From assembly GCA_964595645.1 (NCBI GenBank), contig CAZQQT010000007.1, positions 1 through 64,000 on the forward strand: a DNA stretch of 64,000 bases, read 5' to 3'. This document shows, one piece after another, positions 5,109 through 34,532 of the stretch (position 1 is its first letter; every line of letters starts with the position of its first letter). The stretch comes from an uncultured Thermococci archaeon. Lineage in GTDB: Archaea > Methanobacteriota_B > Thermococci > Methanofastidiosales > B48-G16. The position numbers and the translations under genes are program-made. Below the pieces are notes generated by a model. The model saw nothing but the letters and a program-made list of their open reading frames with translations, had not been told where the DNA came from and did not search any database.

Positions 5109-5166
5109 AACTCTTTTAAGGGGAATATATAATAAAAAGATATAGTGCTATTGTGTATCTACCCAT

Positions 5167-5240
5167 GCCTCGATGGCTCAGCCTGGTAGAGCGGCTGCCT
5201 CGTAAGCAGCAAGTCGGGGGTTCGAATCCCCCTCGGGGCT
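5167..5240 (+). tRNA. tRNA-Thr(CGT)
   Basis: Cloverleaf: acceptor GCCTCGA/TCGGGGC, D arm GCTC/GAGC, anticodon arm GCTGC-CTCGTAA-GCAGC, T arm GGGGG-TTCGAAT-CCCCC; no encoded CCA; T-tract at 5269-5284. Confidence 0.97.
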
Positions 5241-5412
5241 TATTTACCCTCCGTTTAGTTCCCTCATGTTTTTTTCTTTTTTTTCCAGAAAAGATCTGCT
5301 TTCTATATGTTTTTGTGAGTATAGCTCTTAATAAAGCTTTGATATTACAGCATTCTCGGATGCTATCAGCACGTGTACCGAGAGAGATCATCCTGTATTC
5401 TCTCTTCAGTTA

Positions 5413-6393
5413 TTATTTTTGCTCGGATGCACCTCTCTGAACAGTACTACGCCATCCATGACCTGCGATACCTTCCACCGCAACAGCGTAGATCGAGACA
5501 CCCGACGCCGTCAACCGATGTGCCCACGGCTTTTCTATTGGTGCCTCACTTGATTTGCATACATGGCCATGACCATATAACACCAGTACCGGCGCGTTAT
5601 CTATCTCGTTTCGTATATACTGGATGTTTCGTGCGATTGTCTCCTCCCGACGTTCGATGGCTTTTTTCTTCTCATTCCCACTACTACTCATAGCGTAATA
5701 CACTAGGATAGACGTTTTTACTGTAGATAGTTCATGTATAACGGATTCTTCGTCTGTCGTTTCCATGAGAGTGTCCACAAGCTCCACCATCTCATTTTTA
5801 CTTTTGGCTTCGAACTCCTCTTCCGAGGAGAGCTCAATATCGGCCCCTATCTCTTCTTTCAGCTCTCTGATGTGCGTGTAGATATGTGAAGAGGGAAAGT
5901 CCACATCGACGAGATGCGCCCTGATCTTTTCATCCTTGGGAAGATCCTCGTTGATCTCGTGGATACCTTCGAGGACATCAAACCGATCCGGCCTGTTCCA
6001 GAGGACTTCAGCTGCGTCTTTGTCTCCTCCATGGACGTACGCATTGGCCTCTTCCTCAGCGACCTCATTAGCCTCCAGAATCACGTCTTGAAGGCCGATG
6101 GACTCGTGCAACATTGCAAGATACTCCAGAAAGAGCTGGTGGATTTCCTGTGTGCCGTGCTGTTCACCAATCAGATAGATATCGTATCCCGATGTCGCAA
6201 GGGGCAGTGCACTCACATCATTGGTGAGGTACACGCTTGGGTACTCCTCAAGCGTGACGAGCTCTTTCTCGGAGGGTGTAGTTGTTGTGGGTGCTGGCGT
6301 TGTCTCCTGTGTCGACTCCACACACCCGGAGAGTATCACGCCTCCAATGATGATCAGTAACCCCATGCCTTTCAAGATAGACTTTCTTTTCAT
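5413..6393 (-). CDS. Lipoprotein with erythromycin-esterase/ChaN-like (EreA/TIKI) domain, possibly 3'-truncated
   Basis: Lipobox LSGC, Thr/Pro linker, IGEQHGT, ILE, RE..IARNI and YGHGHV motifs. Confidence 0.6.
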   Translation of the reverse strand: MKRKSILKGMGLLIIIGGVILSGCVESTQETTPAPTTTTPSEKELVTLEEYPSVYLTNDVSALPLATSGYDIYLIGEQHGTQEIHQLFLEYLAMLHESIGLQDVILEANEVAEEEANAYVHGGDKDAAEVLWNRPDRFDVLEGIHEINEDLPKDEKIRAHLVDVDFPSSHIYTHIRELKEEIGADIELSSEEEFEAKSKNEMVELVDTLMETTDEESVIHELSTVKTSILVYYAMSSSGNEKKKAIERREETIARNIQYIRNEIDNAPVLVLYGHGHVCKSSEAPIEKPWAHRLTASGVSIYAVAVEGIAGHGWRSTVQRGASEQK

Positions 6394-7031
6394 GCCCCCA
6401 CACCTCTAATTACTATATCGTACTCAATTGTGCTTTTTATAAAATTTTCGATCTAATTTTAAACGATTGGAAAAATTGTATCTTTTCTTTTGAGATAATC
6501 TTAATATAAATTAGACAATGTTTAAAACTGACCCAGTACTTTGTCAAGATAGTTCCTCTATGGAGGGAGTTAGACCATTCCTTACCATCAATATAGAAAC
6601 CATTCCACCGCACTCCATTACAGACTTGTCTTCTCCTTAAGGAGGACACCAAATACTAACACAGGCCCAACAGCAACCACAATATCTCATAGGATGAGCG
6701 CAAGAAAGAGGTGAAGCCCCTCTTGAATCGTCTACTTCAGTCTCGATACCAACGATAGTACATGGAGGCACTCGCTTCTTCCATGCGGTAGGTACAGAGG
6801 GGTGTCTTGGGATTTTTCAGATTCCATTGCTGTAATAGCTGAAAATATAACAGATAGTACTATCATGCTCATAAGAATAAGTGCGCCCTTCTTATTTTTT
6901 TCAGGTTTAGAAATAAAAAGTAAATCCAAAAACTATTTTGTATGCTCATTCTGATCAACGTTTCATCTTTAAATATTGAAGATTCTACGAGACCGAAAAC
7001 TATAAGTAAAGAAACGTATTGTTTATTGAGT

Positions 7032-8234
7032 ATGAAAAACGCTGTTATTAAAAAATTGATAGAAACCACACTGATCATCGTATTGTTCGCTGGCTGTATA
7101 GGTACACAACCGGAAACGACCACGCCGCCTCCGACCACGGCAGCACCGACCACAACTGCACCTGCGGCGTTCGAGATCACGGACCTCCGTGTCTCTCCCA
7201 CCACTCCCACGATAGGCGACACGCTGACCGTCCTCGTCGACGTGAAGAACACCGGGGAGACCTCGGGGAGCTACACGGTCCTCATCACCGTGGGGAACAG
7301 CTCACAGACCAAGAACATTGAGCTGGACGGACAAAGTACCACCACCGTGGACTTCCAGGTGGAACTCCAGAATGAGGGGACCATCGAGATCGCCACGGGA
7401 AACTTCGCGAAAACGATTGTCGTCTCGCCGAAAGAAACGCCGGCACCGACGACCGCTGCGCCGACTACGACGGCAGCGCCTACCACAGCGCCACCAACGA
7501 CCCCGCAACCTACCGCTCCACCGGAGGAACGGAACAGGATCGATCGTCCCGCGTACGAGCTGGGGACACGGCTAAACTATCTGGTTACCGCTGGCGGTAA
7601 CGAGTGGGGAACGACCTTCTCCTACAACAGATCCTACGAAGTGGATAGAACACCTTGGTTCAGGTGGGGGGTAACCGACTGGTGGGAACCCGATCCGGAG
7701 GACACGTACTGGCGCGGTGATTACACCTACGTGTATGACGGTGGCTGGAATCTTGCTGGAGTATGGAGTACTAAAATTGGGGGGACAACGGCTGGTTTCA
7801 ACCTCTACCTACTCGATTACGAGCCTAACCTGTCCTCTATATACCCTCTTGTCAAAGGAGATGAAAACGTCGATACAGGACAAATTGAGAGGATGGTTAT
7901 GGTTGGAATAACATGGGCTGCCGCAGGTTTTCCAGAAGGACGGGGAAATTACGAACGACGAATCTACACTGAAGAGTTCGAGGAGATTGAAGCAGGCGGT
8001 GAGATGTATCGATGTGCGAAGGTCAAGTACTATATGAAGCACACCGTGGAGTTCCTCTCGCCACACTACAACGAAGACTGGGGAAAAACGACGTGGATAG
8101 AGGAAGGATACCACTGGTACGCAGAAGAGGTAGGACTCGTCAAAGCGGATGTCACCATCAAAACGTACTGGTGGGATGAACTCGAAGAAACAGATAGGTT
8201 CCAAGTAGAACTCACTGCCGCGACACTACCGTAA
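7032..8234 (+). CDS. Surface lipoprotein with CARDB/Ig-like domain and Pro/Thr linkers
   Basis: Lipobox FAGC; V.VKNTG..SG CARDB pattern; PTTAAPTT linkers; likely start ATG 7032. Confidence 0.75.
   Translation: MKNAVIKKLIETTLIIVLFAGCIGTQPETTTPPPTTAAPTTTAPAAFEITDLRVSPTTPTIGDTLTVLVDVKNTGETSGSYTVLITVGNSSQTKNIELDGQSTTTVDFQVELQNEGTIEIATGNFAKTIVVSPKETPAPTTAAPTTTAAPTTAPPTTPQPTAPPEERNRIDRPAYELGTRLNYLVTAGGNEWGTTFSYNRSYEVDRTPWFRWGVTDWWEPDPEDTYWRGDYTYVYDGGWNLAGVWSTKIGGTTAGFNLYLLDYEPNLSSIYPLVKGDENVDTGQIERMVMVGITWAAAGFPEGRGNYERRIYTEEFEEIEAGGEMYRCAKVKYYMKHTVEFLSPHYNEDWGKTTWIEEGYHWYAEEVGLVKADVTIKTYWWDELEETDRFQVELTAATLP
7440..7522 (+). repeat. Degenerate coding tandem repeat (PTT[A/T]AP linker)
   Basis: Repeated ccgacgaccgctgcg/ccgactacgacggcagcg/cctaccacagcg units. 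Confidence 0.6.
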
Positions 8235-8288
8235 CCTTTCCTTCGTTCTCTCCTATTTTTTATTATACTAGTCTCTATAACGCTTTTC

Positions 8289-8855
8289 TCAGAAAATATA
8301 GAACAATAATCCGAGAATGGGGAAGAATACAGCACCCCACCATACAGGATTGTACTTCAGCACCTTCGATCCGTCCAATGGAGGGAAGGGGAGAAGGTTG
8401 AAGAGGGCGAGAAACAGGTTGAAGTACACCAAGAAATGGAGGAAGTTATCAATGTCCTGTAATACTACAGAGAGGCTAAGAGCTGTTATAGCCACGGCGA
8501 GATTTGCGACTGGACCTGAAATAGATGTTTTTGCAGCCGTTTTTTCATCTGTGTATCCAAAAATATGAACAGCTCCCGGTGCAGCAAATAATATTCCGAA
8601 AAAAGAGGATCCGAGTGCCAAAAGCAATCCAATGTTCCACCTGCGGAACTCCGCTGGAAGTCCGTACCGTTGTGCCGTATATTTATGTGCCAGCTCGTGG
8701 AGTGCAAACCCAGTGCCCACGGCAATTAAACTTCGTGGCAGCATCTTCAGTGCCAGGAACGGACGATCGTAGCCCCACCAAAGAATACTCAGTGCAATAC
8801 TGAGCACTACCCATGCGATTAAAAGATCCTCTACTTCCTGCCGTGTAAATCTCAT
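8289..8855 (-). CDS. Site-2 protease (peptidase M50)
   Basis: HELAH zinc motif and NLLPFPPLDG. Confidence 0.92.
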   Translation of the reverse strand: MRFTRQEVEDLLIAWVVLSIALSILWWGYDRPFLALKMLPRSLIAVGTGFALHELAHKYTAQRYGLPAEFRRWNIGLLLALGSSFFGILFAAPGAVHIFGYTDEKTAAKTSISGPVANLAVAITALSLSVVLQDIDNFLHFLVYFNLFLALFNLLPFPPLDGSKVLKYNPVWWGAVFFPILGLLFYIF

Positions 8856-8878
8856 GGTGTGTCCCTTCTCACGCACGT

Positions 8879-9499
8879 TTATAAGGTTTCTTCCTCATCT
8901 TCCCACGCACTGTGAAGGAGTATTTCGTTCAACGAGCGTTTTGGGGGAGGACTGGGCCACTCCTCGGGAACACCAAGGGGTGTCACACAGATAAGAGCGT
9001 AGCGATCCGGAATACCGAAGAATTCCTTGACCTTCGCTTCGGGAAAAAATGTTGTGTAAAATCCGGTGCCGTACCCCAGAGCCCGGGCAGCGATCATGAG
9101 CGAGGCAACGGCCAGTGCTCCGTCATATGCTACGTACTGGGGATATCGTTTGGTGGTGTCAACCAGCACCACGATGAATATCGGGGCAGAAAACGCATTT
9201 TCTAACATAGTTTTCGCTTTTTTTCGAACGCCACCAGATTCATCCTCGGTTCCGTATTTTTCCATATACCATGAAAGTGTTTTCTCTTTCAGTTGAGTAC
9301 GTTTTTCTTTGTTTCGTATCACGAGAAACTTCCACGGCTGCTGATTACCAGCTGAAGGCGCGAACCGAGCAGCGTTAAGAATTTTCAGAAGGTGTCTTTC
9401 CGGTACGGGATCCGATGTAAACTTGCGTACCGTGCGGCGGGTGCGAAGTACCGTAAAAAGATACTCCTGCTTTTGAGTTATCTCCATTGAACGGCTCAT
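8879..9499 (-). CDS. Nitroreductase family protein
   Basis: RRTVRKF, APSAGNQQPWKF, AARALGYGT. Confidence 0.9.
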   Translation of the reverse strand: MSRSMEITQKQEYLFTVLRTRRTVRKFTSDPVPERHLLKILNAARFAPSAGNQQPWKFLVIRNKEKRTQLKEKTLSWYMEKYGTEDESGGVRKKAKTMLENAFSAPIFIVVLVDTTKRYPQYVAYDGALAVASLMIAARALGYGTGFYTTFFPEAKVKEFFGIPDRYALICVTPLGVPEEWPSPPPKRSLNEILLHSAWEDEEETL

Positions 9500-9574
9500 C
9501 TTGTGTATTTGCGTATGAAACAATAAAAAAATTTCGATTGGAGTATGAAAAAGATACGTTTTTATGTTCATAGC

Positions 9575-10316
<742 letters not shown>

Positions 10317-10321
10317 CAGGG

Positions 10322-10831
10322 CTACGTGACATCAATATAGAAGTGTATTTCCTCTCCTGTTGAAAGTCGTATGGACACCTTGTGTCGCCCCGGAGAGTCG
10401 ATACGAAGTGATTCCTGTATTACTCTTTTTTCAGTATTCTCGGCTGAGAGTGTCCCTTCCTCCACTATTTCCTCATCCACAACCACAGAGTAGCGGTACT
10501 CCCATGCATGTCCGAGATGGTTGGTGATCTCGAAGGAGAAGGTGAACTGTTCATTGCTCGCTATTTTTTTGGGATACGCTGCGAGAAGTGCTGTTTCTTT
10601 AGAGTACTCAAGAATCGTATACCACTCGTTGTTGTACGAAAACACCCGATCCTCTGTTTTCACAGGCGTATCAAAATAGATTGTATACCCATCATTCGTC
10701 ACTGCCTCTTTTTTCACACAGACGAAGTTCAGCTCTGTGTACTCATTGGGATCGTTTTTGAACTCGTAGATAAAGAGTTGTGTAACAACGAGTCCGAGAA
10801 TGGATGCCAGAATAATTATTTTATACTTCAT
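10322..10831 (-). CDS. Membrane-anchored hypothetical protein (DUF1616-like C-terminus)
   Basis: N-terminal TM, YTEL motif, Ig-like beta-rich C-terminus. Confidence 0.5.
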   Translation of the reverse strand: MKYKIIILASILGLVVTQLFIYEFKNDPNEYTELNFVCVKKEAVTNDGYTIYFDTPVKTEDRVFSYNNEWYTILEYSKETALLAAYPKKIASNEQFTFSFEITNHLGHAWEYRYSVVVDEEIVEEGTLSAENTEKRVIQESLRIDSPGRHKVSIRLSTGEEIHFYIDVT

Positions 10832-10852
10832 GGTGTGAGTTGGATTCCATGG

Positions 10853-11236
10853 TTAAAAATCTTCTTCCACTGTACTGGGTGCGATACGATCGATGAGATC
10901 CTGAATATTGTCACTTTCAATCTCCACGTGGATTACACCAAGTTTTGCTTCATCGATGAAGTTCACCACGCCGACAAAGGCTGTCTGTTTGTTGATACAA
11001 AATTTGAGCGTGGTTCCGTAAATGCTGTGACGCAGCACAGCGCGGGCGGTGTCCCGTATTTTCTGGTACCTAAGCCTCTCTTCCAGAATATCGAGGCTTC
11101 GTTCCTCGGTGGACTCGCCGCTGAGATGATCGTCTTGTCGTGTGAGAGGGATATCAAATATATTCTGTACAGCCCGCCGTACCTTCTCCTCACTTTCTGT
11201 TGGGTATATGGGTACCGTGACACGCAGAGAGAACAT
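10853..11236 (-). CDS. UPF0201/DUF54 archaeal RNA-binding-domain protein
   Basis: YPTESEEKV..AV.NIF, QKIRDTAR, NKQTAFVG. Confidence 0.85.
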   Translation of the reverse strand: MFSLRVTVPIYPTESEEKVRRAVQNIFDIPLTRQDDHLSGESTEERSLDILEERLRYQKIRDTARAVLRHSIYGTTLKFCINKQTAFVGVVNFIDEAKLGVIHVEIESDNIQDLIDRIAPSTVEEDF

Positions 11237-11310
11237 GCTCCAGTTATGACTCCTTAGTAAAAAAGGTTATGCCATCATAATATTTAAGAGTTCTTCTGAG
11301 AAGGAAACGT

Positions 11311-11745
11311 ATGAACCAGTTAGAAGAGAGAGTGGCAGGATACGATACAGAATTTATTAAGTTCGAAGAAAACGTGAAGACAGTGGCACAGGCAGAGAAC
11401 CTCCTCGACGTCTCATCGGAAGAGATAGTAAAAAGTCTGGTGGTCATAGGTGAAGAACCCCTCCTCTGCATTGTGCCGGGAAATAGATCGGTGGATTTCA
11501 CCAAACTAACGGAAATGTATGGAGACACACGACTAGCCACACCGAAAGAGGTGAAGGATGTCACAGGCTATGAGATCGGTGGTGTGCCGCCTATCGCGGA
11601 TATAAAAGTGCTGATTGATGAACGGATCATGGAAAAACGGTACGTATATGGAGGGGGAGGAAACGAACGGACGCTTCTGAAGATATCACCTGAGGATATT
11701 CTGAAGATAAACAAAGAGACTGAGGTAGTGGATATCGCTGAGTAA
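11311..11745 (+). CDS. ybaK: YbaK/EbsC aminoacyl-tRNA editing domain protein
   Basis: IVKSLV, TGYEIGGVPP, GGG motifs. Confidence 0.9.
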   Translation: MNQLEERVAGYDTEFIKFEENVKTVAQAENLLDVSSEEIVKSLVVIGEEPLLCIVPGNRSVDFTKLTEMYGDTRLATPKEVKDVTGYEIGGVPPIADIKVLIDERIMEKRYVYGGGGNERTLLKISPEDILKINKETEVVDIAE

Positions 11746-11746
11746 T

Positions 11747-13201
11747 ATGCCATACTGTATCATCGACTGCTACACCGATGAGCCATCGGGCCTTGGCGTG
11801 CCTCCGTACCTCGGTACCTACCCACGATACATTGCGGGGGCAGTAGAAAATGCGTACTACCTCACCATCGATGATGTACGATTCTGGAAACACAAGAAAA
11901 AGAAAAGAAGAACACGACTGAACGAGAAAACGAATATCAAAACCTACAATCACACCCGAAACTACGAAGATGTAGGAAAAATCCTCAACGCGTCAACGCT
12001 CATCGTGGTACTCGGGGTGCAGACACCGGGTAAATACCTTCGTGCCGTGCCGGGAACATTGCGAGAGATCTGTACGCTCCTCGAGAATGTAAAATCTCCC
12101 AAGGTTCTCACCGGGCCAGCCGCAGGGGTGGGAACGCAGAAAACAGGTGGGAGAAAAATTGAAAGGCTGAAAGAGGATTTTTTTGATGATATAAATCAAA
12201 ATCCAGCAGGAATACATAATTACAACAAAGTGAGAGAGTATGCAGTGAGAGGAGCATACATCATGGATCAGATTCCGGACAGACGAATCATTGAGATAGA
12301 GACGGGAAGGGGTTGCCGTGGGAACTGCAGCTTCTGTGTTGAGTCGTTGAAAGAGGTAGAGTTTCGGGATGTCGAAGATATCGTGGACGAGGTAAGAACG
12401 TTCTACAATAGAGGATGCAGGCACTTCAGGCTCGGAAAACAACCGTGTTTTTACTCCTATAAAACACCTGAAGAAATAGAAAAACTGCTGAAAGCCTTGC
12501 ACAAGATGAACCTAAAGACACTCCATATCGACAACGTGAACCCCAACAGAGTTGTCACCGATACCGGAATAAAGATCACGAAAATGATTGTAAAGTACTG
12601 TACGCCGGGAAATGTCGCCGCCTTCGGCATGGAAAGTTTCGATGAGCGAGTAATCGGAGAGAACAGCCTCAATACCCACCCTGGGACATTGTATGAAGCG
12701 GTAAAGATCCTCAATAAGTACGGAAAACAGAGGGGAGACAACGGAATGCCAACATTTCTGCCGGGGATCAACATCGTCCTGGGGCTAAAGGGAGAGACAG
12801 AAGAGACCCTTGAGAGAAACTACCAATGGCTGCAACGATTTCTGGATGAGGGCCTTCTACTTCGGCGGATCAATATCCGAAAGGTCGTGCCATACCCTGG
12901 TACAGAAATGGCAGAACATGGATTAAAAACATTGAAAACCAACAATAAGCTTTACTACAGCTGGAGAGAGAAAATACGGGAGGAGGTTGATGCAGAAATG
13001 TTGCGAAAAGTTGTGCCCGAAGATACTCTATTGAAAAATGTGTACGCTGAAATATACGAAGGAAAAACAACGTTTGGAAGACAGTTTGGATCGTACCCAC
13101 TGGTCGTCGGAATACGGAAGCGAGTGCCGTTGAAGGAGGGGTACGATATCACGGTGAAGGAGTATGGGAGGAGAAGTGTCACCGGTACTATAGTGCAGTG
13201 A
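11747..13201 (+). CDS. Radical SAM protein (archaeal COG1031-like) with C-terminal TRAM-like domain
   Basis: IDCYTDEPSGLGVPPY N-terminus, ETGRGCRGNCSFC cluster motif, RQFGSYPLVVG. Confidence 0.85.
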   Translation: MPYCIIDCYTDEPSGLGVPPYLGTYPRYIAGAVENAYYLTIDDVRFWKHKKKKRRTRLNEKTNIKTYNHTRNYEDVGKILNASTLIVVLGVQTPGKYLRAVPGTLREICTLLENVKSPKVLTGPAAGVGTQKTGGRKIERLKEDFFDDINQNPAGIHNYNKVREYAVRGAYIMDQIPDRRIIEIETGRGCRGNCSFCVESLKEVEFRDVEDIVDEVRTFYNRGCRHFRLGKQPCFYSYKTPEEIEKLLKALHKMNLKTLHIDNVNPNRVVTDTGIKITKMIVKYCTPGNVAAFGMESFDERVIGENSLNTHPGTLYEAVKILNKYGKQRGDNGMPTFLPGINIVLGLKGETEETLERNYQWLQRFLDEGLLLRRINIRKVVPYPGTEMAEHGLKTLKTNNKLYYSWREKIREEVDAEMLRKVVPEDTLLKNVYAEIYEGKTTFGRQFGSYPLVVGIRKRVPLKEGYDITVKEYGRRSVTGTIVQ

Positions 13202-13203
13202 TC

Positions 13204-14625
13204 TTACTTCAACAACGATTGTCCTAGGGCTATAATTTTTTTCTTCAGCTCACTACTTAATTCGGTTTTCGTCTCTTTGGATGTAATATACGCAGTGAAA
13301 AACGCCGGAGTCCCCTGCTGCAAGATTTCTCCTAGACGGGAGGGATGATCTTTCACCACTGTTGCAATTATATGGTTGCCTAAGGAGTAAAAGGGCCCAG
13401 TGGACTGCAACCCCTCTACCAGGATCTGTTCTGCGGCATCTATGTTTTTTTCAATGTAAATCTCTTTGTACGCTCTTTCTAAAAGCTCGACTCCTTTACC
13501 TACCTCTTCTTCTCCTCTTCGTTCGGCAAACTGACGCGTAATAAACTCACCCGATCCTTCAAGCAAAATATATGTGAGTAGCTCATACAGTTTGTTATCC
13601 TGTACATTATCAAAAGGACCAGCGATCAGTCCCTCAAAACTCTTCGTGTCCTCAGCTCCATATCTGGGGCATATCACTGTTTGTAATCGGTGAAAAAGCT
13701 CATGAGCCATCACAGCATGTAATGCCTCAAAATCGTCTTTGACGTACTCGATATTCACGCCACACATCGCATTTGTTGCCCAGCCTCGAATGGCAAAGCC
13801 TATGGTGAAGGCAAATGTCTCCTCAAAGTCAGTATCTTTTCGTACGTAGGAATAGAGTGTTCCCAACACCTCTTCTTTCATCTCTTCTGTACGTGTTTCC
13901 AGCTGGGTAAGAACAGTATCGTACTCATCAAGATGCATAAAAATATCAGCGAAATCAAAGAAATTCATCGGATTGAGCCATTTCCAGATCATTTCAACCG
14001 GCGACCTGCGCTGTGCGCAAAGAAGAAGGGCGGCCAGACTCTCCAGAGTCACCATCGGCTCAGGAAGGTACCCGAGACTCGTACGGTGGGTGATCATTTC
14101 TTTGTTTGCTGGTAGCTGTGCAATGGTAAGGGCGTCCTCATAAGTCGCTTCTTCTTCTTTTAAAAATTCTATCGTTCTTTTCAGCACGGATAAATCGATT
14201 TCAAGTATCCAATTGTCAGGATAGTTCATATCTCTTTTCTTTTTATAGGGCTCTCCTTTAAATTTCAGTGGATATGCCCCCAATTTTTTAATAGCTTCTA
14301 TATTCTTCTTTTTTTGTTGTGTGAGTTGCCATAGTGAACGCACCATGCCTGAAAATTCCTTGGGGATAATGATCTCCTCATCGAGAAATTGATCCGGGAG
14401 CAGTCCCTCCACCCATGCACCCTTTTCCTTCTGCAGTTCCTGGTACTCAGCCAGCTGTTGCAGATCCTCTGGATCTTCTAAAAGATGTAACTGTGTACAG
14501 ATAAACTGTGCCTCCTGGTGGGAAATGGTTTCTTCTACCTTCTTTATTTTGGTGAGAAGTGATTCATTATCAATATATGCTCTGAGATCATTCCATGTCC
14601 AGTCTTTCGAAAAATCAAATGTCAT
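13204..14625 (-). CDS. Putative zinc-dependent peptidase (DUF5700-like)
   Basis: HELFH motif with a downstream EG motif. Confidence 0.6.
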   Translation of the reverse strand: MTFDFSKDWTWNDLRAYIDNESLLTKIKKVEETISHQEAQFICTQLHLLEDPEDLQQLAEYQELQKEKGAWVEGLLPDQFLDEEIIIPKEFSGMVRSLWQLTQQKKKNIEAIKKLGAYPLKFKGEPYKKKRDMNYPDNWILEIDLSVLKRTIEFLKEEEATYEDALTIAQLPANKEMITHRTSLGYLPEPMVTLESLAALLLCAQRRSPVEMIWKWLNPMNFFDFADIFMHLDEYDTVLTQLETRTEEMKEEVLGTLYSYVRKDTDFEETFAFTIGFAIRGWATNAMCGVNIEYVKDDFEALHAVMAHELFHRLQTVICPRYGAEDTKSFEGLIAGPFDNVQDNKLYELLTYILLEGSGEFITRQFAERRGEEEVGKGVELLERAYKEIYIEKNIDAAEQILVEGLQSTGPFYSLGNHIIATVVKDHPSRLGEILQQGTPAFFTAYITSKETKTELSSELKKKIIALGQSLLK

Positions 14626-25910: not shown

Positions 25911-26040
25911 ATATCTATGTTTATAAATGTTTTGAATCTCTTCTCATATGAATTTTTTTCTGGTTCTACTCCAATCACCGAAACGTTTATAAATCCCTTA
26001 GATCACCAAGGTGTTTGACAAACGTAAAGTTGACCTAGCC

Positions 26041-26062
26041 TTTAAATATAACGGCGTTATAT
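26041..26062 (+). promoter_or_regulatory. TATA box overlapped by a perfect 17-bp palindrome upstream of the aconitase-cit operon
   Basis: TTTAAATA at 26041-26048; ATATAACG-G-CGTTATAT at 26046-26062. Confidence 0.5.
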
Positions 26063-26092
26063 ATAATAACACAACGTCAAAAAGGTGAGTTT

Positions 26093-28036
26093 ATGGGGAA
26101 AAACATCGTAGAAAAAATTTTAGAAAACCATGCTGTTGATGGAGAAACAAAAAAGGGAGAGGAAATTGGAATAAAAATAGATCAAACACTGACACAAGAT
26201 GCTACGGGAACAATGGCATATCTCCAGTTTGAAACACTCGGATTTTCCGAAGTGAAAACAGAGCTCTCGGTGAGCTATATCGATCATAACACAACGCAGA
26301 TAGGGTTTGAGAACTTTGACGATCATAAATACCTCAAGAGTGTTGCAAAAAAGTATGGAATCGTACTTTCCAGGCCTGGAAATGGCATCTGCCACCAGGT
26401 GCATCTGGAACGGTTTGCCCGACCCGGAAAGACACTCATCGGGAGTGACAGCCACACTCCCACCGCCGGTGGGATAGGAAGCCTGGCCATCGGTGCGGGA
26501 GGACTGGACGTTGCTGTGGCAATGGGAGGGGGTCCATTCTACATCGCGTATCCAAAAATCGTGAAGGTAACTCTCCGAGGAGAGCTCCAGCCATGGATCT
26601 CCGCCAAAGATGTCGTACTTACAGTGCTTGAAAAACTTGGTACAAAGGGAAATGTGGGCTGCATTCTCGAGTATGGAGGGGACGGTGTAAAAACGCTCAC
26701 GGTACCGGAGAGAGCCACTATCACAAACATGGGGGCAGAGACAGGAGTGACCACCTCTATATTCCCCAGCGATGAAATTACACGAGAGTTCATGAAAGCA
26801 CAGGGGAGAGAGGATCAATGGACAGAACTCACAGCGGATCCCGATGCAGAGTACGATGAGGAAATCGAGATAGATCTGAGTGCGGTGGAACCAATGGTCG
26901 CATGTCCCCACAGTCCTGGAAACGTGAAACGTGTGAAAGATATTGCGGGGATGAAGATCGATCAGGTAGCAATCGGTTCGTGCACAAATTCATCGCTTCA
27001 AGATCTTGAAACGGTCGCAGCAATTCTAAAGGGAAAAACAGCCCATGAGGGAATTGAGTTCGGTGTAGCACCGGGATCCAGACAGGTATTAGAGATGATC
27101 AGCGAATCAGGAGCACTGGAAGAGCTCATCAAAAGCGGTGCCAGAATTCTCGAGAGCACCTGTGGATTCTGTATAGGAAACTGTTTTGCTCCCGGTACTG
27201 ACTGCGTCTCCCTGCGAACAAACAACAGGAACTTCAAAGGACGATCCGGGACGGAAAGTGCACAGGTATACCTTGTATCGCCTGAGACTGCTGCTGCAGG
27301 AGTGATCACTGGAGAACTCACCGATCCCCGAAATTTAGGGATGAACTACCCGAAAAACACGCTTCCGGAAACATTCCTGATAGATGACTCGATGTTTATC
27401 TTCCCGCTTTCAAAAGAGGCACGGAAAGATGTGGAGATATTCAGGGGGCCAAATATCAAGCCTGCACCTAAAAATACCCCTCTGCCTTCAGCCATCAGTG
27501 GAGAAGTGATGATAAAGGTGGAAAACAAAATCACCACGGATCACATCATGCCCGCAGGATCCCGGATGAAGTACCGATCCAACGTACCGAAGTACGCGGA
27601 GTACGTCTTCGAGAACATTGATTCCACCTTCCCGGAGAAATGTCTGAAAAACAAGAAAGACGGCGTCCACAATATTATCGTCGCCGGTGAAAGCTATGGT
27701 CAAGGATCTTCAAGGGAACACGCCGCACTCTGCCCGATGTACCTCGGTGTGAAGGTGGTACTCGCCAAGTCTATTGAGCGGATCCACAACGCGAATCTCG
27801 TAAACTTCGGAATTCTTCCACTCGCGTTCAAGAACAATGAAGAGTATAACGGGATAGATCAAAACGATGCCCTTGAGATGCCAAATGTGATAGAGGAAAT
27901 AAAAAGCGGAAAGGATGTCACAGTACGGAATACAACGAAAAATAAAGAGTTTAAGGTGACATACCACCTCTCTGACAGAGAGAAGGAAATATTATTTGCT
28001 GGAGGGCTTCTTCCCCTCACAGCACAAAATAAGTGA
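26093..28036 (+). CDS. acn: Aconitate hydratase
   Basis: QDATG, DHN, GICHQ, DSHT, GSCTN, CGFCIG, TTDHI, GSSREHA; single-chain, 647 aa. Confidence 0.92.
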   Translation: MGKNIVEKILENHAVDGETKKGEEIGIKIDQTLTQDATGTMAYLQFETLGFSEVKTELSVSYIDHNTTQIGFENFDDHKYLKSVAKKYGIVLSRPGNGICHQVHLERFARPGKTLIGSDSHTPTAGGIGSLAIGAGGLDVAVAMGGGPFYIAYPKIVKVTLRGELQPWISAKDVVLTVLEKLGTKGNVGCILEYGGDGVKTLTVPERATITNMGAETGVTTSIFPSDEITREFMKAQGREDQWTELTADPDAEYDEEIEIDLSAVEPMVACPHSPGNVKRVKDIAGMKIDQVAIGSCTNSSLQDLETVAAILKGKTAHEGIEFGVAPGSRQVLEMISESGALEELIKSGARILESTCGFCIGNCFAPGTDCVSLRTNNRNFKGRSGTESAQVYLVSPETAAAGVITGELTDPRNLGMNYPKNTLPETFLIDDSMFIFPLSKEARKDVEIFRGPNIKPAPKNTPLPSAISGEVMIKVENKITTDHIMPAGSRMKYRSNVPKYAEYVFENIDSTFPEKCLKNKKDGVHNIIVAGESYGQGSSREHAALCPMYLGVKVVLAKSIERIHNANLVNFGILPLAFKNNEEYNGIDQNDALEMPNVIEEIKSGKDVTVRNTTKNKEFKVTYHLSDREKEILFAGGLLPLTAQNK

Positions 28037-28047
28037 AGGAGAATCCC

Positions 28048-28323
28048 ATGACAAAAAAAATTGTAAAAGAAGGAGTGGCCGGCACAGACAACAAGATGGA
28101 TCTCATCGTCCGTATATATCCCGGAGAGGGAATCGATATCGACGTAGAGGGCAAGGATGTAGCAATTTTTGGTGATGACATACGCACTGTGGCTGCGACA
28201 ACCCTACAAAAAATAGGCATTGAAGACGCCACAGTGAAGATTGCACAGCAAAGACCGCTTGATTTTGTTATCAGAGCACGAATAAAGGCCGCAGCTCGAC
28301 GGGCTAGGGGGGTGGAAAAATGA
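28048..28323 (+). CDS. citD: Citrate lyase acyl-carrier (gamma) subunit homolog lacking the attachment serine
   Basis: AGT..D..V.I.P, FG..I, LD.VIRARI.AA..RA; directly upstream of citE. Confidence 0.8.
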   Translation: MTKKIVKEGVAGTDNKMDLIVRIYPGEGIDIDVEGKDVAIFGDDIRTVAATTLQKIGIEDATVKIAQQRPLDFVIRARIKAAARRARGVEK

Positions 28324-29213
28324 AACTCCGACGCAGTCGTCTGTACGTGCCTGGAAACAACCCCTCCATGTTGGTGAACAGCAGTGTATCAGACGCAGAT
28401 GTTGTGACATTCGACCTCGAAGACGCGGTAGCTCCACGGGACAAACTGCCAGCTCGTGTATTGGTAGGTGAGATCCTCCGGGATGAACAGATCGATTTGG
28501 GAACCTCCGAGATCACCGTGAGGATAAATCCCCTCTCCACACCCTACGGAGAAAAGGACATAGAGGAGATCGTCTGCAAAAGACTCGACGGTATCTACCT
28601 GCCCAAAACAGAGGATCCAAAAGACGTAGAGAAAGTAGATACAATACTCACAAAATTAGAGAAAAAAATGGGGCTTGAAAATGGCAAAATCCATATATTT
28701 GCGCTTATAGAGACAGCGAGAGGCGTATTCAACGCACAGGAAATCGCAACAGCTTCACCACGGATCGAGGGCATTACTATTGGTGGCGAAGACCTCACCG
28801 CGGATCTTGGAGGGGAGAGAACATCGGACGGCTCCACAATTTTTACCGCACGACAGCTGATCCTTCTCACAGCAAAGGCTGCAGGAGTCCAAGCAATGGA
28901 CACCGTATACGCCGATATTGATGACATGGATGGCCTTTATGAAGAAGCAGTGAAGGTGCGAAAAATGGGCTACGATGGAAAGGCAGCAATTCATCCCTCG
29001 CAGATAGAGGTAATTCACAGAGCATTCACCCCATCAGAAGAAGAGATTGCGTACGCTCGGAAAGTAATATCAGCATTGAAGGAGGCTGAAGCCTCCGGGT
29101 CCGGCGTGGCATCTGTGGGAAACAAAATGATAGACAAGCCCATCGCAACACGAGCAAAGAGAATACTTGCCAGGGCGTCAGCCGCTGGACTAATAGAGGA
29201 GGAAGAACTATGA
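28320..29213 (+). CDS. citE: Citryl-CoA lyase (citrate lyase beta subunit)
   Basis: RRSRLYVPGN, DLEDAV, VRIN, IETARG, GK..IHPSQI, MIDKP. Confidence 0.93.
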   Translation: MKLRRSRLYVPGNNPSMLVNSSVSDADVVTFDLEDAVAPRDKLPARVLVGEILRDEQIDLGTSEITVRINPLSTPYGEKDIEEIVCKRLDGIYLPKTEDPKDVEKVDTILTKLEKKMGLENGKIHIFALIETARGVFNAQEIATASPRIEGITIGGEDLTADLGGERTSDGSTIFTARQLILLTAKAAGVQAMDTVYADIDDMDGLYEEAVKVRKMGYDGKAAIHPSQIEVIHRAFTPSEEEIAYARKVISALKEAEASGSGVASVGNKMIDKPIATRAKRILARASAAGLIEEEEL

Positions 29214-30763
29214 GATGGATAGAGAATAATGTCGGAAGAAAGATACCCTCTGAGATAAACGGTGAAAAACTGCGACCGTATCGGGGACCATTTGCAACCC
29301 CACCAATGAAAGAGAGGAGACATAGCCCCAGACTGTATCCTTCACCTCCTGATCGAAAAAAGGTGATCGCTTCTCTCGAGGAAGCAATAAAGAAGGTTGG
29401 ATTGACAGATGGGATGACCATCTCGTTCCACCACCATTTCAGGAATGGAGACATGGTCATGAATATGGTGCTTGAAACCATCGAAAAAATGGGCATCAAA
29501 AATATCACCATTGCGCCCTCATCACTCTTCCCCTGTCAGGAGGATGTACTCCTCAGATGCCTAAAAAACGGTGTGGTGAGCCATATTGAAGGAGGGAGTG
29601 CTAGGGGGAAGATCGGAGAGTACATCTCTCACGGGGACATGGAGAGACCCGTAAAAATACGAAGCCACGGTGGGCGTGTGAGGGCAATTGAGTCAGGAGA
29701 ACTGCCAATAGATGTTGCATTCGTCGGTGCACCGACTGCCGATACTATGGGGAATCTCACAGGCCTGTACGGCCCCTCCGCCTGCGGACCGCTGGGATAC
29801 GCAGTGGCAGATGCCATGTACGCGGACAGAACGATCGCTATCACCGACAACGTAGTGCCATTCCCGCTTGATCGGCACCCAGTGTCAATGGAGTACGTGG
29901 ACTACGTGGTACAGGTTGACAAAATAGGTAATCCTGAGGATATTGTGTTTGGTGCATTGAGAATCACCTCATCGCCGAGACGACGGAAGATCGCAAAGGA
30001 TGCCGTGCAGCTGACCCATGAGCTCGGCTATGTGAAGGATGGTTTCACATTTCAGGCCGGTGCTGGTGGTATCTCATTAGCTTTCGTCGATTTCCTGGGC
30101 AATCTAATGAGAGAGAAGGAAATAAAAGCGAAATGGGCAATGGGCGGTACAACAAAATATCTCGTCTCTCTATTAAGAGAGGGACTTGTAGACTGCCTCA
30201 CCACAGGACAGGCTTTCGATTTGGAAGCAATCGAGTCCATGAGAACGGATAAGAATCACCTTGAAATCTCCATAGGACAGTATGCGAATCCCCACACCAA
30301 AGGGACACTGGTGGATCTGCTCGACGTAGCGGTCCTCGGTGCCACGGAGGTCGATGTGAACTTCAATGTGAATACCGTTACCTACTCCTCCGGAATGCTC
30401 GCCGGACCGATAGGAGGACATGCCGATGTCGCCGCCGGATCGGACCTGACGATTATCACAGTCCCATTAATCCGCACCCGATTCCCGGCAATCGTGGACG
30501 ATGTCACGACGGTAGTGACACCGGGAGAGACGGTGGATGTGGTGGCAACGGAGAAGGGTATCGCCATCAATCCGAAGAGAGATGATCTAATCGATGCACT
30601 CAAGAAAACAGATTTAGTGATAAAAAACATTGAAGATCTCAAAAATGAAGCCTATAAACTTACAGGCGGCAAAAAATCCCCGAGATGGGGTGAAAACGTG
30701 GCCGCCCTTATCGAGTATAGAGATGGAACAATTATTGATACTGTACGAGAAGTAACAATATGA
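29210..30763 (+). CDS. citF: Citrate CoA-transferase (citrate lyase alpha subunit)
   Basis: DGMTISFHHHFRNGD, SHGGR, FQAGAGG, GGHAD, EYRDGTIID. Confidence 0.95.
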   Translation: MRWIENNVGRKIPSEINGEKLRPYRGPFATPPMKERRHSPRLYPSPPDRKKVIASLEEAIKKVGLTDGMTISFHHHFRNGDMVMNMVLETIEKMGIKNITIAPSSLFPCQEDVLLRCLKNGVVSHIEGGSARGKIGEYISHGDMERPVKIRSHGGRVRAIESGELPIDVAFVGAPTADTMGNLTGLYGPSACGPLGYAVADAMYADRTIAITDNVVPFPLDRHPVSMEYVDYVVQVDKIGNPEDIVFGALRITSSPRRRKIAKDAVQLTHELGYVKDGFTFQAGAGGISLAFVDFLGNLMREKEIKAKWAMGGTTKYLVSLLREGLVDCLTTGQAFDLEAIESMRTDKNHLEISIGQYANPHTKGTLVDLLDVAVLGATEVDVNFNVNTVTYSSGMLAGPIGGHADVAAGSDLTIITVPLIRTRFPAIVDDVTTVVTPGETVDVVATEKGIAINPKRDDLIDALKKTDLVIKNIEDLKNEAYKLTGGKKSPRWGENVAALIEYRDGTIIDTVREVTI

Positions 30764-30766
30764 GGT

Positions 30767-31975
30767 GTGAGACATATGTATGAAAAAGAAATGGAAAAAG
30801 CAAAGGAACATTTCGGTAATATCCTCACTGAACAGCTTGAACGGGTAGACCGGATGAAGGAAGGTGAGGACTGGATCGATTATACGACGCTCAAACCGAT
30901 AATTATCGGATTTGTGGGTGGAGACGGCATCGGACCGTTCATTGCGAAAGAAGCGAAACGCGTACTGGAACTGCTACTTGAAGATGAGATCAATAACAGA
31001 AAGATCGAAATGCGGACCATAGAAGGACTGACCATCGAGAACAGGGCCAAAGTTGGAAAGGCTATTCCCAATGATGTTCTGGAGGAAATAAAGAAATGTC
31101 ATGTACTTCTGAAAGGTCCCACCACCACACCCAAAAAAGGAGACAAATGGCCTAATATAGAGAGCGCCAATGTGGCAATGCGCCGTGAACTCGATCTTTT
31201 TGCCAACGTGAGGCCGGTGAAAGTTCCTGAAGAAGATATTGACTGGGTATTCTTCAGGGAGAACACGGAAGGTGCCTATATTCTCGGAAGGAAGGGTATC
31301 ACCGTGGCCGAGGATCTCGCAATCGACTTTGCAGTCGCCACGACACCCGGTGCAGAACGAATTCTCAGAATGGCGTTTAACTACGCCAGAGACAACGATA
31401 TCAACAGAGTGACCGTGGTCACTAAGGCGAACGTGGTCAAAGCATCCGACGGGATGTTCCTAGATATCGCAAAGGACGTGGCAAAGGATTTCCCAGAAGT
31501 AGAGTGGGACGACTGGTTTGTCGATATCATGGCAGCAAAACTCCTCGATCCGGCGAGACGCAGTCAGTTCCGGGTAATTGTGGCACCGAACCTCTTCGGA
31601 GATATCCTCACCGATGAAGCAGCACAACTGCAGGGGGGCGTCGGCACTGCAGGAAGTGCGAACATCGGTAAACGGTACGCCATGTTCGAGGCTATTCACG
31701 GCTCCGCTCCGCGAATGGTAGAAGAAGGACGGGCGAAGTACGCCGATCCCTCCAGTATGATGCGGGCTGCAGCCATGCTGCTCAACCACATTGGTTATCC
31801 GGAAAGAGCAAAGAAACTCGAGATGGCACTGGATGTCTGTGGCCAGTATGAGAGAAAGATCAGGGTCACTGGGCACGACGACGGCGCCACCGGTGCAGAG
31901 TTTGCGGACTACGTAATGGACACCGTGCAGGATCCGAATCTCGAAGAAAGGTGGGAATCCTGCCGGAAAAAGTAA
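30767..31975 (+). CDS. icd: Isocitrate dehydrogenase (isocitrate/isopropylmalate dehydrogenase family)
   Basis: GDGIGP, KGPTTTP, isocitrate-type SANVAMR, RENTEGAY, TKAN, FEAIHGSAP. Confidence 0.85.
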   Translation: MRHMYEKEMEKAKEHFGNILTEQLERVDRMKEGEDWIDYTTLKPIIIGFVGGDGIGPFIAKEAKRVLELLLEDEINNRKIEMRTIEGLTIENRAKVGKAIPNDVLEEIKKCHVLLKGPTTTPKKGDKWPNIESANVAMRRELDLFANVRPVKVPEEDIDWVFFRENTEGAYILGRKGITVAEDLAIDFAVATTPGAERILRMAFNYARDNDINRVTVVTKANVVKASDGMFLDIAKDVAKDFPEVEWDDWFVDIMAAKLLDPARRSQFRVIVAPNLFGDILTDEAAQLQGGVGTAGSANIGKRYAMFEAIHGSAPRMVEEGRAKYADPSSMMRAAAMLLNHIGYPERAKKLEMALDVCGQYERKIRVTGHDDGATGAEFADYVMDTVQDPNLEERWESCRKK

Positions 31976-32012: not shown

Positions 32013-34532
32013 TCACATCATTGATTTCACTGTATTCCAGTATATCTGTGCTACCCATTCTCTCCGTTCCGGTGATACCTCCTCAGAAGTAATGTATTTC
32101 TTCAGTCGTCGTGCACAGCCTCGTTTCGTCTCGGTCACACTGGGGTGCGTGCTCGCGATACAGATATTCAGCTCATCCACCATCTCAGCGATGTACTCCC
32201 CGTCGGAGATCGCCAGGATGCGCTCCCGTGCTTCGGGATCTTCTCTGTACTCCATCGCCGTACTTATTGCCAGCATGGAAACACAGTCAATGAGCCAGTC
32301 ACCTCCCCTTTCTGCGATGGTGTAGCCGAGATCGGTACTGTGCTCATCGAGAAGATCAATTCGCATCTGTGGGAGGCCTGTGGGAGCATCTATCCAGAAA
32401 CTGAGAAATCCAGAGGGGAAGGCGTTACTCCGCTCCAGTCCGATCCCTCCGAGTACTTCAGGTGCTGAAAATCCAGAAGGTCGTGTGATGACACTTCCTT
32501 CATCCCATTGGGGCTGCTGCAGTCCGAAGAGAATCTCAATCCTGTAGACCTGCCCTTCCAGTTCCTCAGGAATATCAAAAGCAAGAAGAAGACCGCTTTC
32601 ATCCTCGAAAAAAATAGACTCTGAGTGATACACAGTTTTTGTTACCTTTGTATGCTTGTTCTTATGGTCATCGTAGTACCCACGTGGTTTTCCTGGGTTG
32701 TTGTTCTTCCACTCTTTCCATTTATCCTCATCTTTTTTCTTTGCTTTCTCGAAAGCGTCATCCCAGCTATCCTTATCCAGACCGTTGAGCTTGTCTGCGA
32801 ACTCCTTCTCAAAATGGTCGTGTTCCTTTTTATTGGAGTCTGGATACGCGTATGAGTGGCTGTCCTCATCTGTCGCGGTGTAGACACCCTCCACATGCTC
32901 CTCGATATTGGCCGCGACTCCTCCTGAGAAACACTGCATCATCTCAACGAAGATATGGATCCCTGCCTCATCGATGGACTTCAAGATGTCTGCAAACTCA
33001 TCGTCCCAGAGCACCTCGCCACCCCAGAGGGTGATACCCTCGTGAAATCCGACCTCATCGTCCTTGTCACCGTCGTTGTTCCAGTCGACACCTCCATCAT
33101 CCTTATCGATATCGCCATCACCATCGGTATCCTCTCCGATCTTGTCCCATCCTCCGTTGTTCTTTTTGTAGGCGACAAACTTCGATCCGTCCCATTCCAC
33201 CTTTGTATCGTTGGTACCGTCACCGTCGGTGTCCCATTCATTGGTCTCGTACTGCCACGGGCCAAGGTTATTCATTTCCCAGCCCATGTGATCCTTGTCA
33301 CCGTCGTTATCAACATCCTGTCCCGTCTCGTACTCTTCGACACGGCCGTCACCGTTGAGATCGCTGCCCTTCAGCACCCAGGTACCATTCTCCCGCTTGT
33401 ACAGCTGGAGCCTGTTCGTCTGTTTGTCCAGATGGACGAACCAGGCCTCTCCCTTGTTATTTACCCACTGTTGGCTCTCTCGATGTGCTTTCTTTCTGCA
33501 GTCGATCCGTATTTCTTTTTCCGGATACGTTTTTCCTATACTCTCCGAGGATCGTCCCCCGGTGTAGCCAGCGGCGGGATTATACCCTGCGCCGTGATCG
33601 GTGACAAATACTGCCAGCGTGGAACTCGGGGACATCTTATCTGGATATCCTCCCATAACCTCCTCAATTTTATCCTTCGTTGCCGGGTAATCCACGATAT
33701 TTTTTCCATCGAGGATGATTGGCTCGCCGTTGTTATAGAATACATCGATTTCGTCATCCGAAAGCCCAAGCTCTCGAAGTTTCTTGTATTTCGCTTTAAT
33801 ATCCTCCTCGTACCGCTCTTTTTGGTTGTTGTCATCGGCAGTGCCACAGATAATTGTTCCCCTGTCACCTCCGCTGTCTGAGCCTTCTCCATTCAGCGCA
33901 AATCCTAGTGATCCTTCTTGCACGATAGAGGATGGAAACAACATGCTTTTCCCTCCGTAGTCCTCTGTGAGCACATGGTATCGCTCTACGGTGATCAGTG
34001 GCGTGGGGTGGAGAGTAAATGTACCGTATGTGTCAGAAAAGTTCTTTACCTCGCCGTACACAAGAATCTCTGCACCGTCCATTGTATACGGAGGCAGTTC
34101 TCCATCGAGTCTAATAAACGAATGGGCAGGAAGTATTGTGTTCGCAAGAAGAGAGCTGTAATCCAGGACTAAAAATCCAACGCCATCATTGGTCGTTCTC
34201 TCGTCGCCGTACACCCCTAACGTCCAGGTTTTCGTTCCGAAATACTCATCGAGCATGAACGTGAGTCGAGGAACAGAGGTAATCTCTTCTAGGGTTAACG
34301 GTGGCAACTCCGTAGGTTTCGAAGGCTCCTCAGATTCTTCTTCCACGGCCGGTTGAGTCTGTTCGGGTTGTGCTGCTTTCTGTGGTGTTTCAGTCTGTCC
34401 AGGCTCCGCTGTTTTTTCGGGTGTGTCAGTGATTGTTGGTTCTATCGTTTCCGATGGTTCTCCTCCGATGCATCCTACGACAATTATTACAAGAAACAGT
34501 GGCATTATAAGATTAATGTATCTCTTTTGCAT
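32013..34532 (-). CDS. Lipoprotein with clan CD (caspase/legumain-like) cysteine peptidase domain and DxDGDG Ca-binding loops
   Basis: Lipobox VVGC; ATK..I, VFVTDHG and MQCFSGG catalytic motifs; five Dx[DN]xDG motifs. Confidence 0.7.
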   Translation of the reverse strand: MQKRYINLIMPLFLVIIVVGCIGGEPSETIEPTITDTPEKTAEPGQTETPQKAAQPEQTQPAVEEESEEPSKPTELPPLTLEEITSVPRLTFMLDEYFGTKTWTLGVYGDERTTNDGVGFLVLDYSSLLANTILPAHSFIRLDGELPPYTMDGAEILVYGEVKNFSDTYGTFTLHPTPLITVERYHVLTEDYGGKSMLFPSSIVQEGSLGFALNGEGSDSGGDRGTIICGTADDNNQKERYEEDIKAKYKKLRELGLSDDEIDVFYNNGEPIILDGKNIVDYPATKDKIEEVMGGYPDKMSPSSTLAVFVTDHGAGYNPAAGYTGGRSSESIGKTYPEKEIRIDCRKKAHRESQQWVNNKGEAWFVHLDKQTNRLQLYKRENGTWVLKGSDLNGDGRVEEYETGQDVDNDGDKDHMGWEMNNLGPWQYETNEWDTDGDGTNDTKVEWDGSKFVAYKKNNGGWDKIGEDTDGDGDIDKDDGGVDWNNDGDKDDEVGFHEGITLWGGEVLWDDEFADILKSIDEAGIHIFVEMMQCFSGGVAANIEEHVEGVYTATDEDSHSYAYPDSNKKEHDHFEKEFADKLNGLDKDSWDDAFEKAKKKDEDKWKEWKNNNPGKPRGYYDDHKNKHTKVTKTVYHSESIFFEDESGLLLAFDIPEELEGQVYRIEILFGLQQPQWDEGSVITRPSGFSAPEVLGGIGLERSNAFPSGFLSFWIDAPTGLPQMRIDLLDEHSTDLGYTIAERGGDWLIDCVSMLAISTAMEYREDPEARERILAISDGEYIAEMVDELNICIASTHPSVTETKRGCARRLKKYITSEEVSPERREWVAQIYWNTVKSMM

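Follow-up and report, generated by a model that had tools for sequence, protein, structure and literature searches.

The acn-citDEF-icd locus

The window, by which we mean the whole stretch of 64,000 nucleotides that was analysed, carries five consecutive genes on its forward strand: acn (positions 26093–28036), citD (28048–28323), citE (28320–29213), citF (29210–30763) and icd (30767–31975). The successive junctions are a gap of 11 nt, two overlaps of 4 nt each and a gap of 3 nt, and we read the five genes as one translationally coupled operon. The intergenic region upstream of acn (25911–26092, forward strand) separates it from a divergently oriented SNase-like gene and contains A/T-rich boxes of the TTTATAAA type. 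This is presumed to be the archaeal promoter region of the operon, an inference for which function has not been shown. Several TTTATAAA-like boxes found there are candidate archaeal TATA elements for both divergent units, SNase-like and acn. A scan for sigma-70 promoters and terminators was uninformative, the organism being an archaeon. Downstream, an ORF of 839 aa on the reverse strand (32013–34532) converges with icd and had no Pfam match at E ≤ 0.01.

The acn product is a fused-type aconitate hydratase of 647 aa, scoring 942 bits with TIGR01342 and 940 bits with NF005558, each above the cut-off. It shares 83 % identity with the ortholog from the same genus, 77–81 % with the orthologs of the family and 60 % with that of L046, a locus in a Thermoplasmatota-labelled MAG. 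The icd gene encodes an isocitrate-dehydrogenase-type beta-decarboxylating dehydrogenase (PF00180, 234 bits), whose best solved relatives are the NAD-dependent isocitrate dehydrogenases 6lky, 6m3s and 6ltf. Its product is 82 % identical to the ortholog in G002, a genome of the same family, as against 73 % for L046. From these ortholog identities, we read both acn and icd as native to this lineage.

Between them, citE encodes a citryl-CoA-lyase-type beta subunit of 297 aa that matches PF03328 (216 bits) and the citE model TIGR01588, the latter with 311 bits and hence below the equivalog cut-off of 443. It also matches the RipC/Ccl and malyl-CoA lyase models, and the exact specificity of CitE is not settled by sequence, given the sub-cut-off score. 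The closest solved structures (5ugr, 5vxc, 4l9y, 1sgj and 1u5h) are all lyases of free CoA esters. The citF product, a citrate CoA-transferase alpha subunit of 517 aa, matches PF04223 with 566 bits and TIGR01584 with 612 bits (cut-off 501), and its PDB matches were 2hj0 and 1xr4, with E-values of 1e-141 to 1e-143.

A CitD subunit without serine

The citD gene, which has GGAG 7–8 nt 5' of its ATG, encodes a citrate-lyase gamma homolog of 91 aa whose translation contains no serine. Use of an alternative GTG start at 28033 would add none. With serine making up 4.7 % of the neighbouring proteins, the chance of a serine-free 91-mer is approximately 0.013. The protein matches PF06857 (58 bits, cut-off 25.1) and the NCBIfam model PRK13253, 'citrate lyase subunit gamma' (65.4, cut-off 65), while its score with TIGR01608 citD (62.5) falls marginally below the cut-off of 63.5. 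Ser14 of the Escherichia coli and Klebsiella CitD carries 2'-(5''-phosphoribosyl)-3'-dephospho-CoA. The corresponding loop of this CitD reads AGTDNKMD (residues 11–18, positions 28078–28101), and Lys16, with its codon at 28093–28095, lies in the column of the canonical Ser14.

For the alignment on which this rests, 1.84 billion cluster representatives were searched exhaustively with HMMER, with 150 CitD homologs listed and 139 usable; a word-indexed protein search with CitD returned only the self match. The attachment column was occupied by Ser in 76 of the 139 CitD-like domains, by Lys or Arg in 45 and by another residue (Ala, Pro, Asn, Thr or Asp) in 18, so a basic residue is not obligatory. 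The Ser-type domains follow the pattern A-G-T-L-E-S-(S/G/N)-D, with the Ser two residues ahead of an invariant Asp. Gly12 and Asp18 are invariant across the Ser, K/R and other types. The CitD from the window was the sole serine-free domain among the 150 listed. A tree of the 139 representatives was built for the origins of the loop types, but CitD proved too short to resolve them (26 state changes in the best tree, of which approximately 3 are forced by supported branches).

AF2 modelled CitD with high confidence (pLDDT 95.7), and the motif falls in a loop (residues 13–18) that joins strands 9–12 and 19–25. No PDB entry was matched in a sequence search with CitD. Its best true fold match was MdcC (5vit_C; TM 0.75, rmsd 2.4 Å over 85 columns), found by fold alone, and the loop position of Lys16 in the model corresponds to the loop tip that bears Ser25 in the published MdcC structure. 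A sequence-only reading of the window had claimed a CitD without serine and with the motif AGTDNKMD, flanked by acn, citEF and icd. Both parts held, the first in the translation and alignment and the second in the ORF map and the Pfam and NCBIfam models.

The acn-citDEF clade and the age of the replacement

A locus scan using one genome per species yielded 16 loci, of which 11 came from Thermoplasmatota-labelled MAGs. The order acn-citD-citE-citF was seen in nine of these 11, and the remaining two are partial loci on short contigs (citF-icd in L045 and citD-citE-citF in L049). L046 is the closest to the window, with identities of 64 % for CitD, 72 % for CitE, 75 % for CitF and 73 % for icd. 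In L046 (positions 4885–13985, JAOZQA010000005.1, Thermoplasmatota-labelled MAG) the genes form a single operon, acn-citD-citE-citF-icd-aclB-aclA.

The CitD loops of the clade have Lys or Arg throughout, with AGTDKKMD in L046 and AGTEERED, AGTDERED or AGTDEKED, that is AGT(D/E)E(R/K)ED, in the ten others. The basic column is kept down to approximately 40 % CitD identity, and a swap between Lys and Arg was found between CitDs that are 83 % identical. Pairwise dN/dS for CitD within the clade was 0.04–0.19, indicating purifying selection on CitD. Within the clustered library, the CitD nearest to that of the window (P0002; 49 % identity) is of the Ser type, which had suggested a recent decay of the Ser. 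This idea was overturned because the same operon type has Lys at 64 % identity and Lys or Arg at approximately 40–45 %.

In the CitF phylogeny, L045, L046 and the window form one group (support 100/99) nested in the acn-linked, Thermoplasmatota-labelled clade (100/99), and the stand-alone CitF of the organism's own family formed a separate clade. Consistent with this, the CitF from the window shares 75–76 % identity with proteins from Thermoplasmata- or Thermoplasmatota-labelled MAGs, as against 54–55 % with the stand-alone CitF found in its own family and 50 % with a second, fused-locus CitF. CitE is likewise 72 % identical to that of L046 and 37–39 % identical to the stand-alone CitE of the family.

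The stand-alone citDEF of the family was found at L037–L040 (in G001, G002, G003 and G005). Its CitD loop is one residue longer (GESGTRNVKRD, GESGNPNSKND or GESGD(V/G)KSKND), with a Lys two residues ahead of the Asp and, in genus g2, an adjacent Ser. The genome that contains the window (G000) is without this family locus and has the Thermoplasmatota-type citDEF instead.

Cofactor-loading genes and a second CitD

The G000 assembly consists of 14 contigs and is 99.96 % complete. No match to CitG (PF01874), CitX (PF03802) or MdcG (PF10620) was found at E ≤ 1 anywhere in this genome. In control genomes the CitG and CitX searches gave matches above the cut-offs, while the MdcG model gave sub-threshold matches only. 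CitC was also absent from the whole genome, with no match to TIGR00124. A single match to the PF08218 'CitC' model (15–18 bits) was to a generic cytidylyltransferase of 168 aa and was rejected.

Contig C4 encodes a second CitD domain as part of a CitD-CitE fusion protein of 375 aa, with an intact CitF gene behind it. Here too the attachment column is occupied by Lys, in a loop with the sequence VSGTKGKAD. An in-frame TAG that appeared to interrupt this CitF was due to a match that overran the gene boundary. The genome also encodes, elsewhere, an ADP-forming acetyl-CoA synthetase (TIGR02717, 581, cut-off 567).

The loss of Ser was compared with the presence of loading genes in related and unrelated genomes. 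In the 11 Thermoplasmatota-labelled MAGs, all with K/R-type CitD, none had CitX, CitG or CitC (0/11 each). In three genomes of the organism's own family with K-type CitD (G000, G001 and G002), CitG and CitC were each absent from all three and CitX from G000, the only one of the three in which it was searched. All three loading genes were present in all four bacteria with Ser-type CitD (three Acidaminobacter, one Negativicutes; AGTMESSD or AGTVESSD). The pattern was without exception, in that 14/14 K/R archaea lack the loading genes (with CitX searched in G000 and the 11 MAGs, not in G001 or G002) and 4/4 Ser bacteria have them. As the compared genomes are related to one another, these counts are not independent.

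Among 41 related genomes, the six belonging to the organism's own family contain only K-type CitD domains and no CitG (0/6). Two sister families within the organism's order have a Ser-type MdcC (VVASGDLEV), and a CitG/MdcB gene was found a few kb away in 24/24 of their genomes, which gave the analysis a positive control among relatives. This indicates that the searches detect the machinery where the serine is present. In these sister families, f2 and f4 (L007–L031 and L033–L036), the CitG/MdcB gene lies approximately 4 kb from the Ser-type MdcC; the combination looks like a malonate-decarboxylase cluster in Methanofastidiosum-like archaea, which remains a possibility only. In a third loop type the Ser14 column holds Asp and the position after it Ser; it reads AGT(D/N)DDSD or GNEKDSD and was seen in L004 and L005 (family f3) and in L059 (Fusobacterium sp. 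MFO224). The Fusobacterium genome, with GNEKDSD, had no CitX, CitG or CitC (0/1 each).

The sequence-only reading had noted that the CitG, CitX and CitC genes are missing from the operon and the window, which held and now extends to the whole genome. Two findings that would have weakened its case were not made: the second CitD in the genome is of the Lys type and comes without loading genes, and the close relatives do not retain the Ser. Its expectation that Ser loss would coincide with genome-wide absence of citC, citX and citG also held.

Displacement of ATP-citrate lyase

Aconitase orthologs within the family are 77–83 % identical to acn. Upstream synteny extends to the same-genus genome (G001), where a PUA-domain gene, a D-aminoacyl-tRNA deacylase gene and the SNase-like gene precede acn, and the genes 3' of acn are an ORF of 427 aa and a truncated ORF of 530 aa. 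In G002 the order is acn, an ORF of 430 aa, an ORF of 619 aa and icd (82 % identity). Pfam identifies the ORFs between acn and icd as AclB (ATP-grasp and citrate-binding domains) and AclA (CoA-binding, CoA-ligase and citrate-synthase domains), the two subunits of ATP-citrate lyase (ACL). No ACL and no citrate-synthase domain was found in G000. In the family genomes and the L046 genome, citrate-synthase domains were found in AclA only. The citDEF operon and the second K-type locus are thus the only routes detected in G000 for cleaving or forming citrate. Two separate SucC/SucD-like pairs were observed in this ACL-less genome (C9:85282–86463 and C3:196533–197716).

We read this as a xenologous citDEF cassette of the Thermoplasmatota type occupying the lineage's ACL slot between acn and icd. 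Recombination within acn or icd was considered as the mechanism of the swap, but neither gene is a mosaic, and for both the family orthologs remain the nearest sequences as far as the junctions. No compositional trace of transfer was detected, as the GC and GC3 of citDEF are not anomalous. The position of citDEF in the ACL slot, between orthologous acn and icd, makes it likely that citrate is the substrate and that the step is one of central metabolism, although no enzyme assays are available. This refines the role first proposed for the operon, since citDEF stands in for ACL rather than merely lying beside aconitase and isocitrate dehydrogenase. The exchange of ACL for citDEF between the same flanking genes amounts to a natural experiment, in which evolution treats the two as functionally exchangeable. 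However, L046 encodes citDEF and aclBA together, so they are not simply interchangeable everywhere, and its K-type citrate lyase and ACL are likely to be non-redundant there.

Proposed mechanism and direction of flux

Citrate lyase has been described as strictly dependent on a covalent CoA-like arm and on three accessory enzymes. On balance, we prefer the reading that the window encodes a citrate lyase without the covalent arm, in which CitF and CitE work on free acetyl-CoA and citryl-CoA and CitD is kept for docking, but the margin is modest and there is no biochemistry on any K/R-type enzyme. In the CitF reaction, free acetyl-CoA would donate its CoA to citrate, with acetate and free (3S)-citryl-CoA as products. 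CitE would then split this citryl-CoA into oxaloacetate and acetyl-CoA, and the acetyl-CoA would serve for the next round. As the acetyl-CoA would be regenerated in each cycle, the proposal is that catalytic acetyl-CoA replaces CitC, CitG, CitX and the tethered thiol. CitD would keep its fold and act in docking or bridging CitF and CitE, with Lys (Arg in relatives) at the tip of its hairpin.

The use of free acetyl-CoA and citryl-CoA by CitE and CitF had already been proposed and is supported by the genomic evidence, with the activity on free CoA esters remaining an inference. The accompanying claim that CitD is only a scaffold probably understates its part because the loop keeps Gly12, Asp18 and a preference for Lys or Arg, and a role for the loop is likely to have been retained. 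One such role would be a contact between Lys16 and the phosphate of the free CoA nucleotide in the active site of a partner subunit, a salt bridge from the basic loop tip taking the place of the covalent phosphodiester. This is pure inference, held with low confidence, and we consider it rather more likely to be wrong than right.

Published work on these enzymes offers some parallels. The donors listed for EC 2.8.3.10, the CitF reaction, are acetyl-CoA, acetyl-dephospho-CoA and acetyl-ACP (PMC8085960). In malonate decarboxylase, MdcD-MdcE accepts free malonyl-CoA (PMC5534430). The crystallised tetramer of the Pseudomonas enzyme contains MdcC without its prosthetic group, and MdcC Ser25, at the tip of the beta2-beta3 loop, lies approximately 10 Å from the 2'-OH of the ribose of a CoA modelled in the transferase subunit (PMC5534430).

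In this archaeon, an anaerobe of the class Thermococci, the operon would connect the aconitase and isocitrate dehydrogenase steps with oxaloacetate and acetate. A citrate lyase combined with the ADP-forming acetyl-CoA synthetase would have a net chemistry equal to that of ACL. We lean, without being certain, towards the cleavage (reductive) direction, from 2-oxoglutarate via isocitrate and citrate to oxaloacetate and acetate, because no thioester is spent in condensing acetate with oxaloacetate, and the reaction is thermodynamically unfavourable. The equilibrium constant for acetate and oxaloacetate to citrate is near 1 per molar, which strongly disfavours the reaction at physiological concentrations. 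Genomes that lack citrate synthase and have only ACL, together with the reductive half-cycle, are typical of reverse TCA cycles.

A bolder reading, which we regard as unlikely, is that CitF is primed by a non-acetyl acyl-CoA such as succinyl-CoA, since CitF might take another primer once the thioester is no longer tethered. Citrate and succinyl-CoA would then give citryl-CoA and succinate, and CitE would release net acetyl-CoA. If true, this would be an ATP-independent equivalent of ACL for the reductive TCA cycle, and would explain both the clean displacement of ACL and a basic CitD tip that holds free CoA esters non-covalently.

Alternative explanations

The alternative that survives best shares the mechanism proposed here and reverses its physiology. 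The enzyme could run in the synthetic direction, from acetyl-CoA and oxaloacetate via citryl-CoA to citrate, as a substitute for citrate synthase that makes 2-oxoglutarate for glutamate. In its favour, there is no citrate synthase in G000, and the three steps that lead from oxaloacetate to 2-oxoglutarate are precisely those that the operon encodes. In Desulfobacter postgatei, ACL itself runs towards citrate (reference cited within PMC8085960). Against it stands the expected thermodynamic penalty of condensing acetate with oxaloacetate. The synthetic direction is possible and is not excluded.

A second alternative is that a covalent cofactor is still attached to CitD, via Thr13 of the conserved AGT or via Lys16, and is loaded by a system unrelated to CitX and CitG. 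The AGT...D loop is conserved despite the loss of Ser, and non-homologous loading enzymes would be invisible to homology searches, so this cannot be excluded. However, Lys and Arg swap freely within the close clade, which points to charge rather than covalent chemistry and counts against a covalently modified lysine. Thr13 is also conserved in Ser-type CitD, although the cofactor is not attached to it there. Nor do the operons share a candidate gene in their surroundings, the neighbours being acn, icd and acl only, and CitC, the enzyme that re-acetylates the thiol, is missing too. We consider this explanation very unlikely.

Equally improbable is that the substrate is not citrate but citramalate or a related hydroxy-acid CoA ester, with the acn- and icd-like genes belonging to a leucine- or isoleucine-type pathway. 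The score of CitE below the citE equivalog cut-off and its RipC/Ccl and malyl-CoA lyase matches would permit this, as would the membership of isopropylmalate and homoisocitrate enzymes in the dehydrogenase family. Against it, the orthologous acn and icd flank ACL in the sister genomes, acn passes the aconitate hydratase equivalog and CitF the citF equivalog cut-off, and among solved structures icd is best matched by isocitrate dehydrogenases.

The last alternative, in which CitD is a relic without function and free CoA esters are handled by CitE and CitF alone, finds support in stand-alone CitE-like lyases that work without CitD (Mycobacterium tuberculosis, human CLYBL; PMC6232273) but is likewise very unlikely, given the low CitD dN/dS, the presence of CitD in every acn-citDEF operon sampled, the 4-nt overlap of the citD stop with the citE start, the in-frame fusion of CitD to CitE at the paralogous locus and in many lineages, and the confident AF2 model.

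Comparison with known systems

The reading that remains preferred is a citrate lyase that uses free CoA esters. What we read as new here is a stand-alone, entirely serine-free archaeal CitD, a conserved acn-citDEF operon clade and the displacement of ACL in situ. A Ser-less CitD was not found described in the literature searched, which left most subscription-journal papers outside its scope. The Ignavibacterium genome paper noted a CitE-CitD fusion and suggested a role in the rTCA cycle (PMC3362086), and says nothing of the serine where it deals with citrate lyase. A citrate lyase that lacks both the anchoring Ser and the accessory genes, yet is conserved and widespread, would count as an enzyme subtype of its own. 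If this is true, 'citrate lyase' annotations in metagenome-based claims of the reverse TCA cycle would read differently, and three small genes without maturation factors would make a simple in vitro system for citrate cleavage or synthesis.

The classical citrate lyase, CitDEF with CitC, CitX and CitG (EC 4.1.3.6), is known from Klebsiella pneumoniae, E. coli and lactic acid bacteria. The system described here shares with it the three subunit families and their gene order, a CitF that passes the equivalog cut-off, the CitD fold and the loop frame A-G-T-x-x-X-x-D. It differs in that the attachment Ser is replaced by Lys (Arg or Lys in relatives) and the preceding L-E by D/E-x, and in that the genome is without citC, citX and citG. 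It also lacks the context of a citrate transporter or oxaloacetate decarboxylase, lying instead between aconitase and isocitrate dehydrogenase in an archaeal host.

ATP-citrate lyase (AclBA) of the reductive TCA cycle occupies the identical operon slot and the same metabolic step, but belongs to unrelated protein families. Unlike AclBA, citDEF uses no ATP, and its net yield should be acetate instead of acetyl-CoA, barring the use of another CoA donor. The CCS/CCL system of Hydrogenobacter thermophilus (PMC3362086) likewise cleaves citrate in two steps via free citryl-CoA, but makes the citryl-CoA with an ATP-dependent ligase, where the enzyme described here would use CoA transfer. CCL resembles citrate synthase, whereas CitE is a TIM barrel of the HpcH/HpaI type.

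The stand-alone CitE-like lyases (M. tuberculosis CitE, 1u5h; human CLYBL, 5vxc; malyl-CoA lyases, 5ugr and 4l9y) share the CitE fold and act on free CoA thioesters, but have no CitD or CitF partner, and their substrates are malyl-, citramalyl- and methylmalyl-CoA. MdcC (5VIT chain C) is the closest solved fold to the CitD described here, belongs to the same family (PF06857) and has its attachment residue at the tip of the same hairpin loop. MdcC, however, keeps Ser25 and depends on MdcB and MdcG, whereas the CitD from the window has Lys instead.
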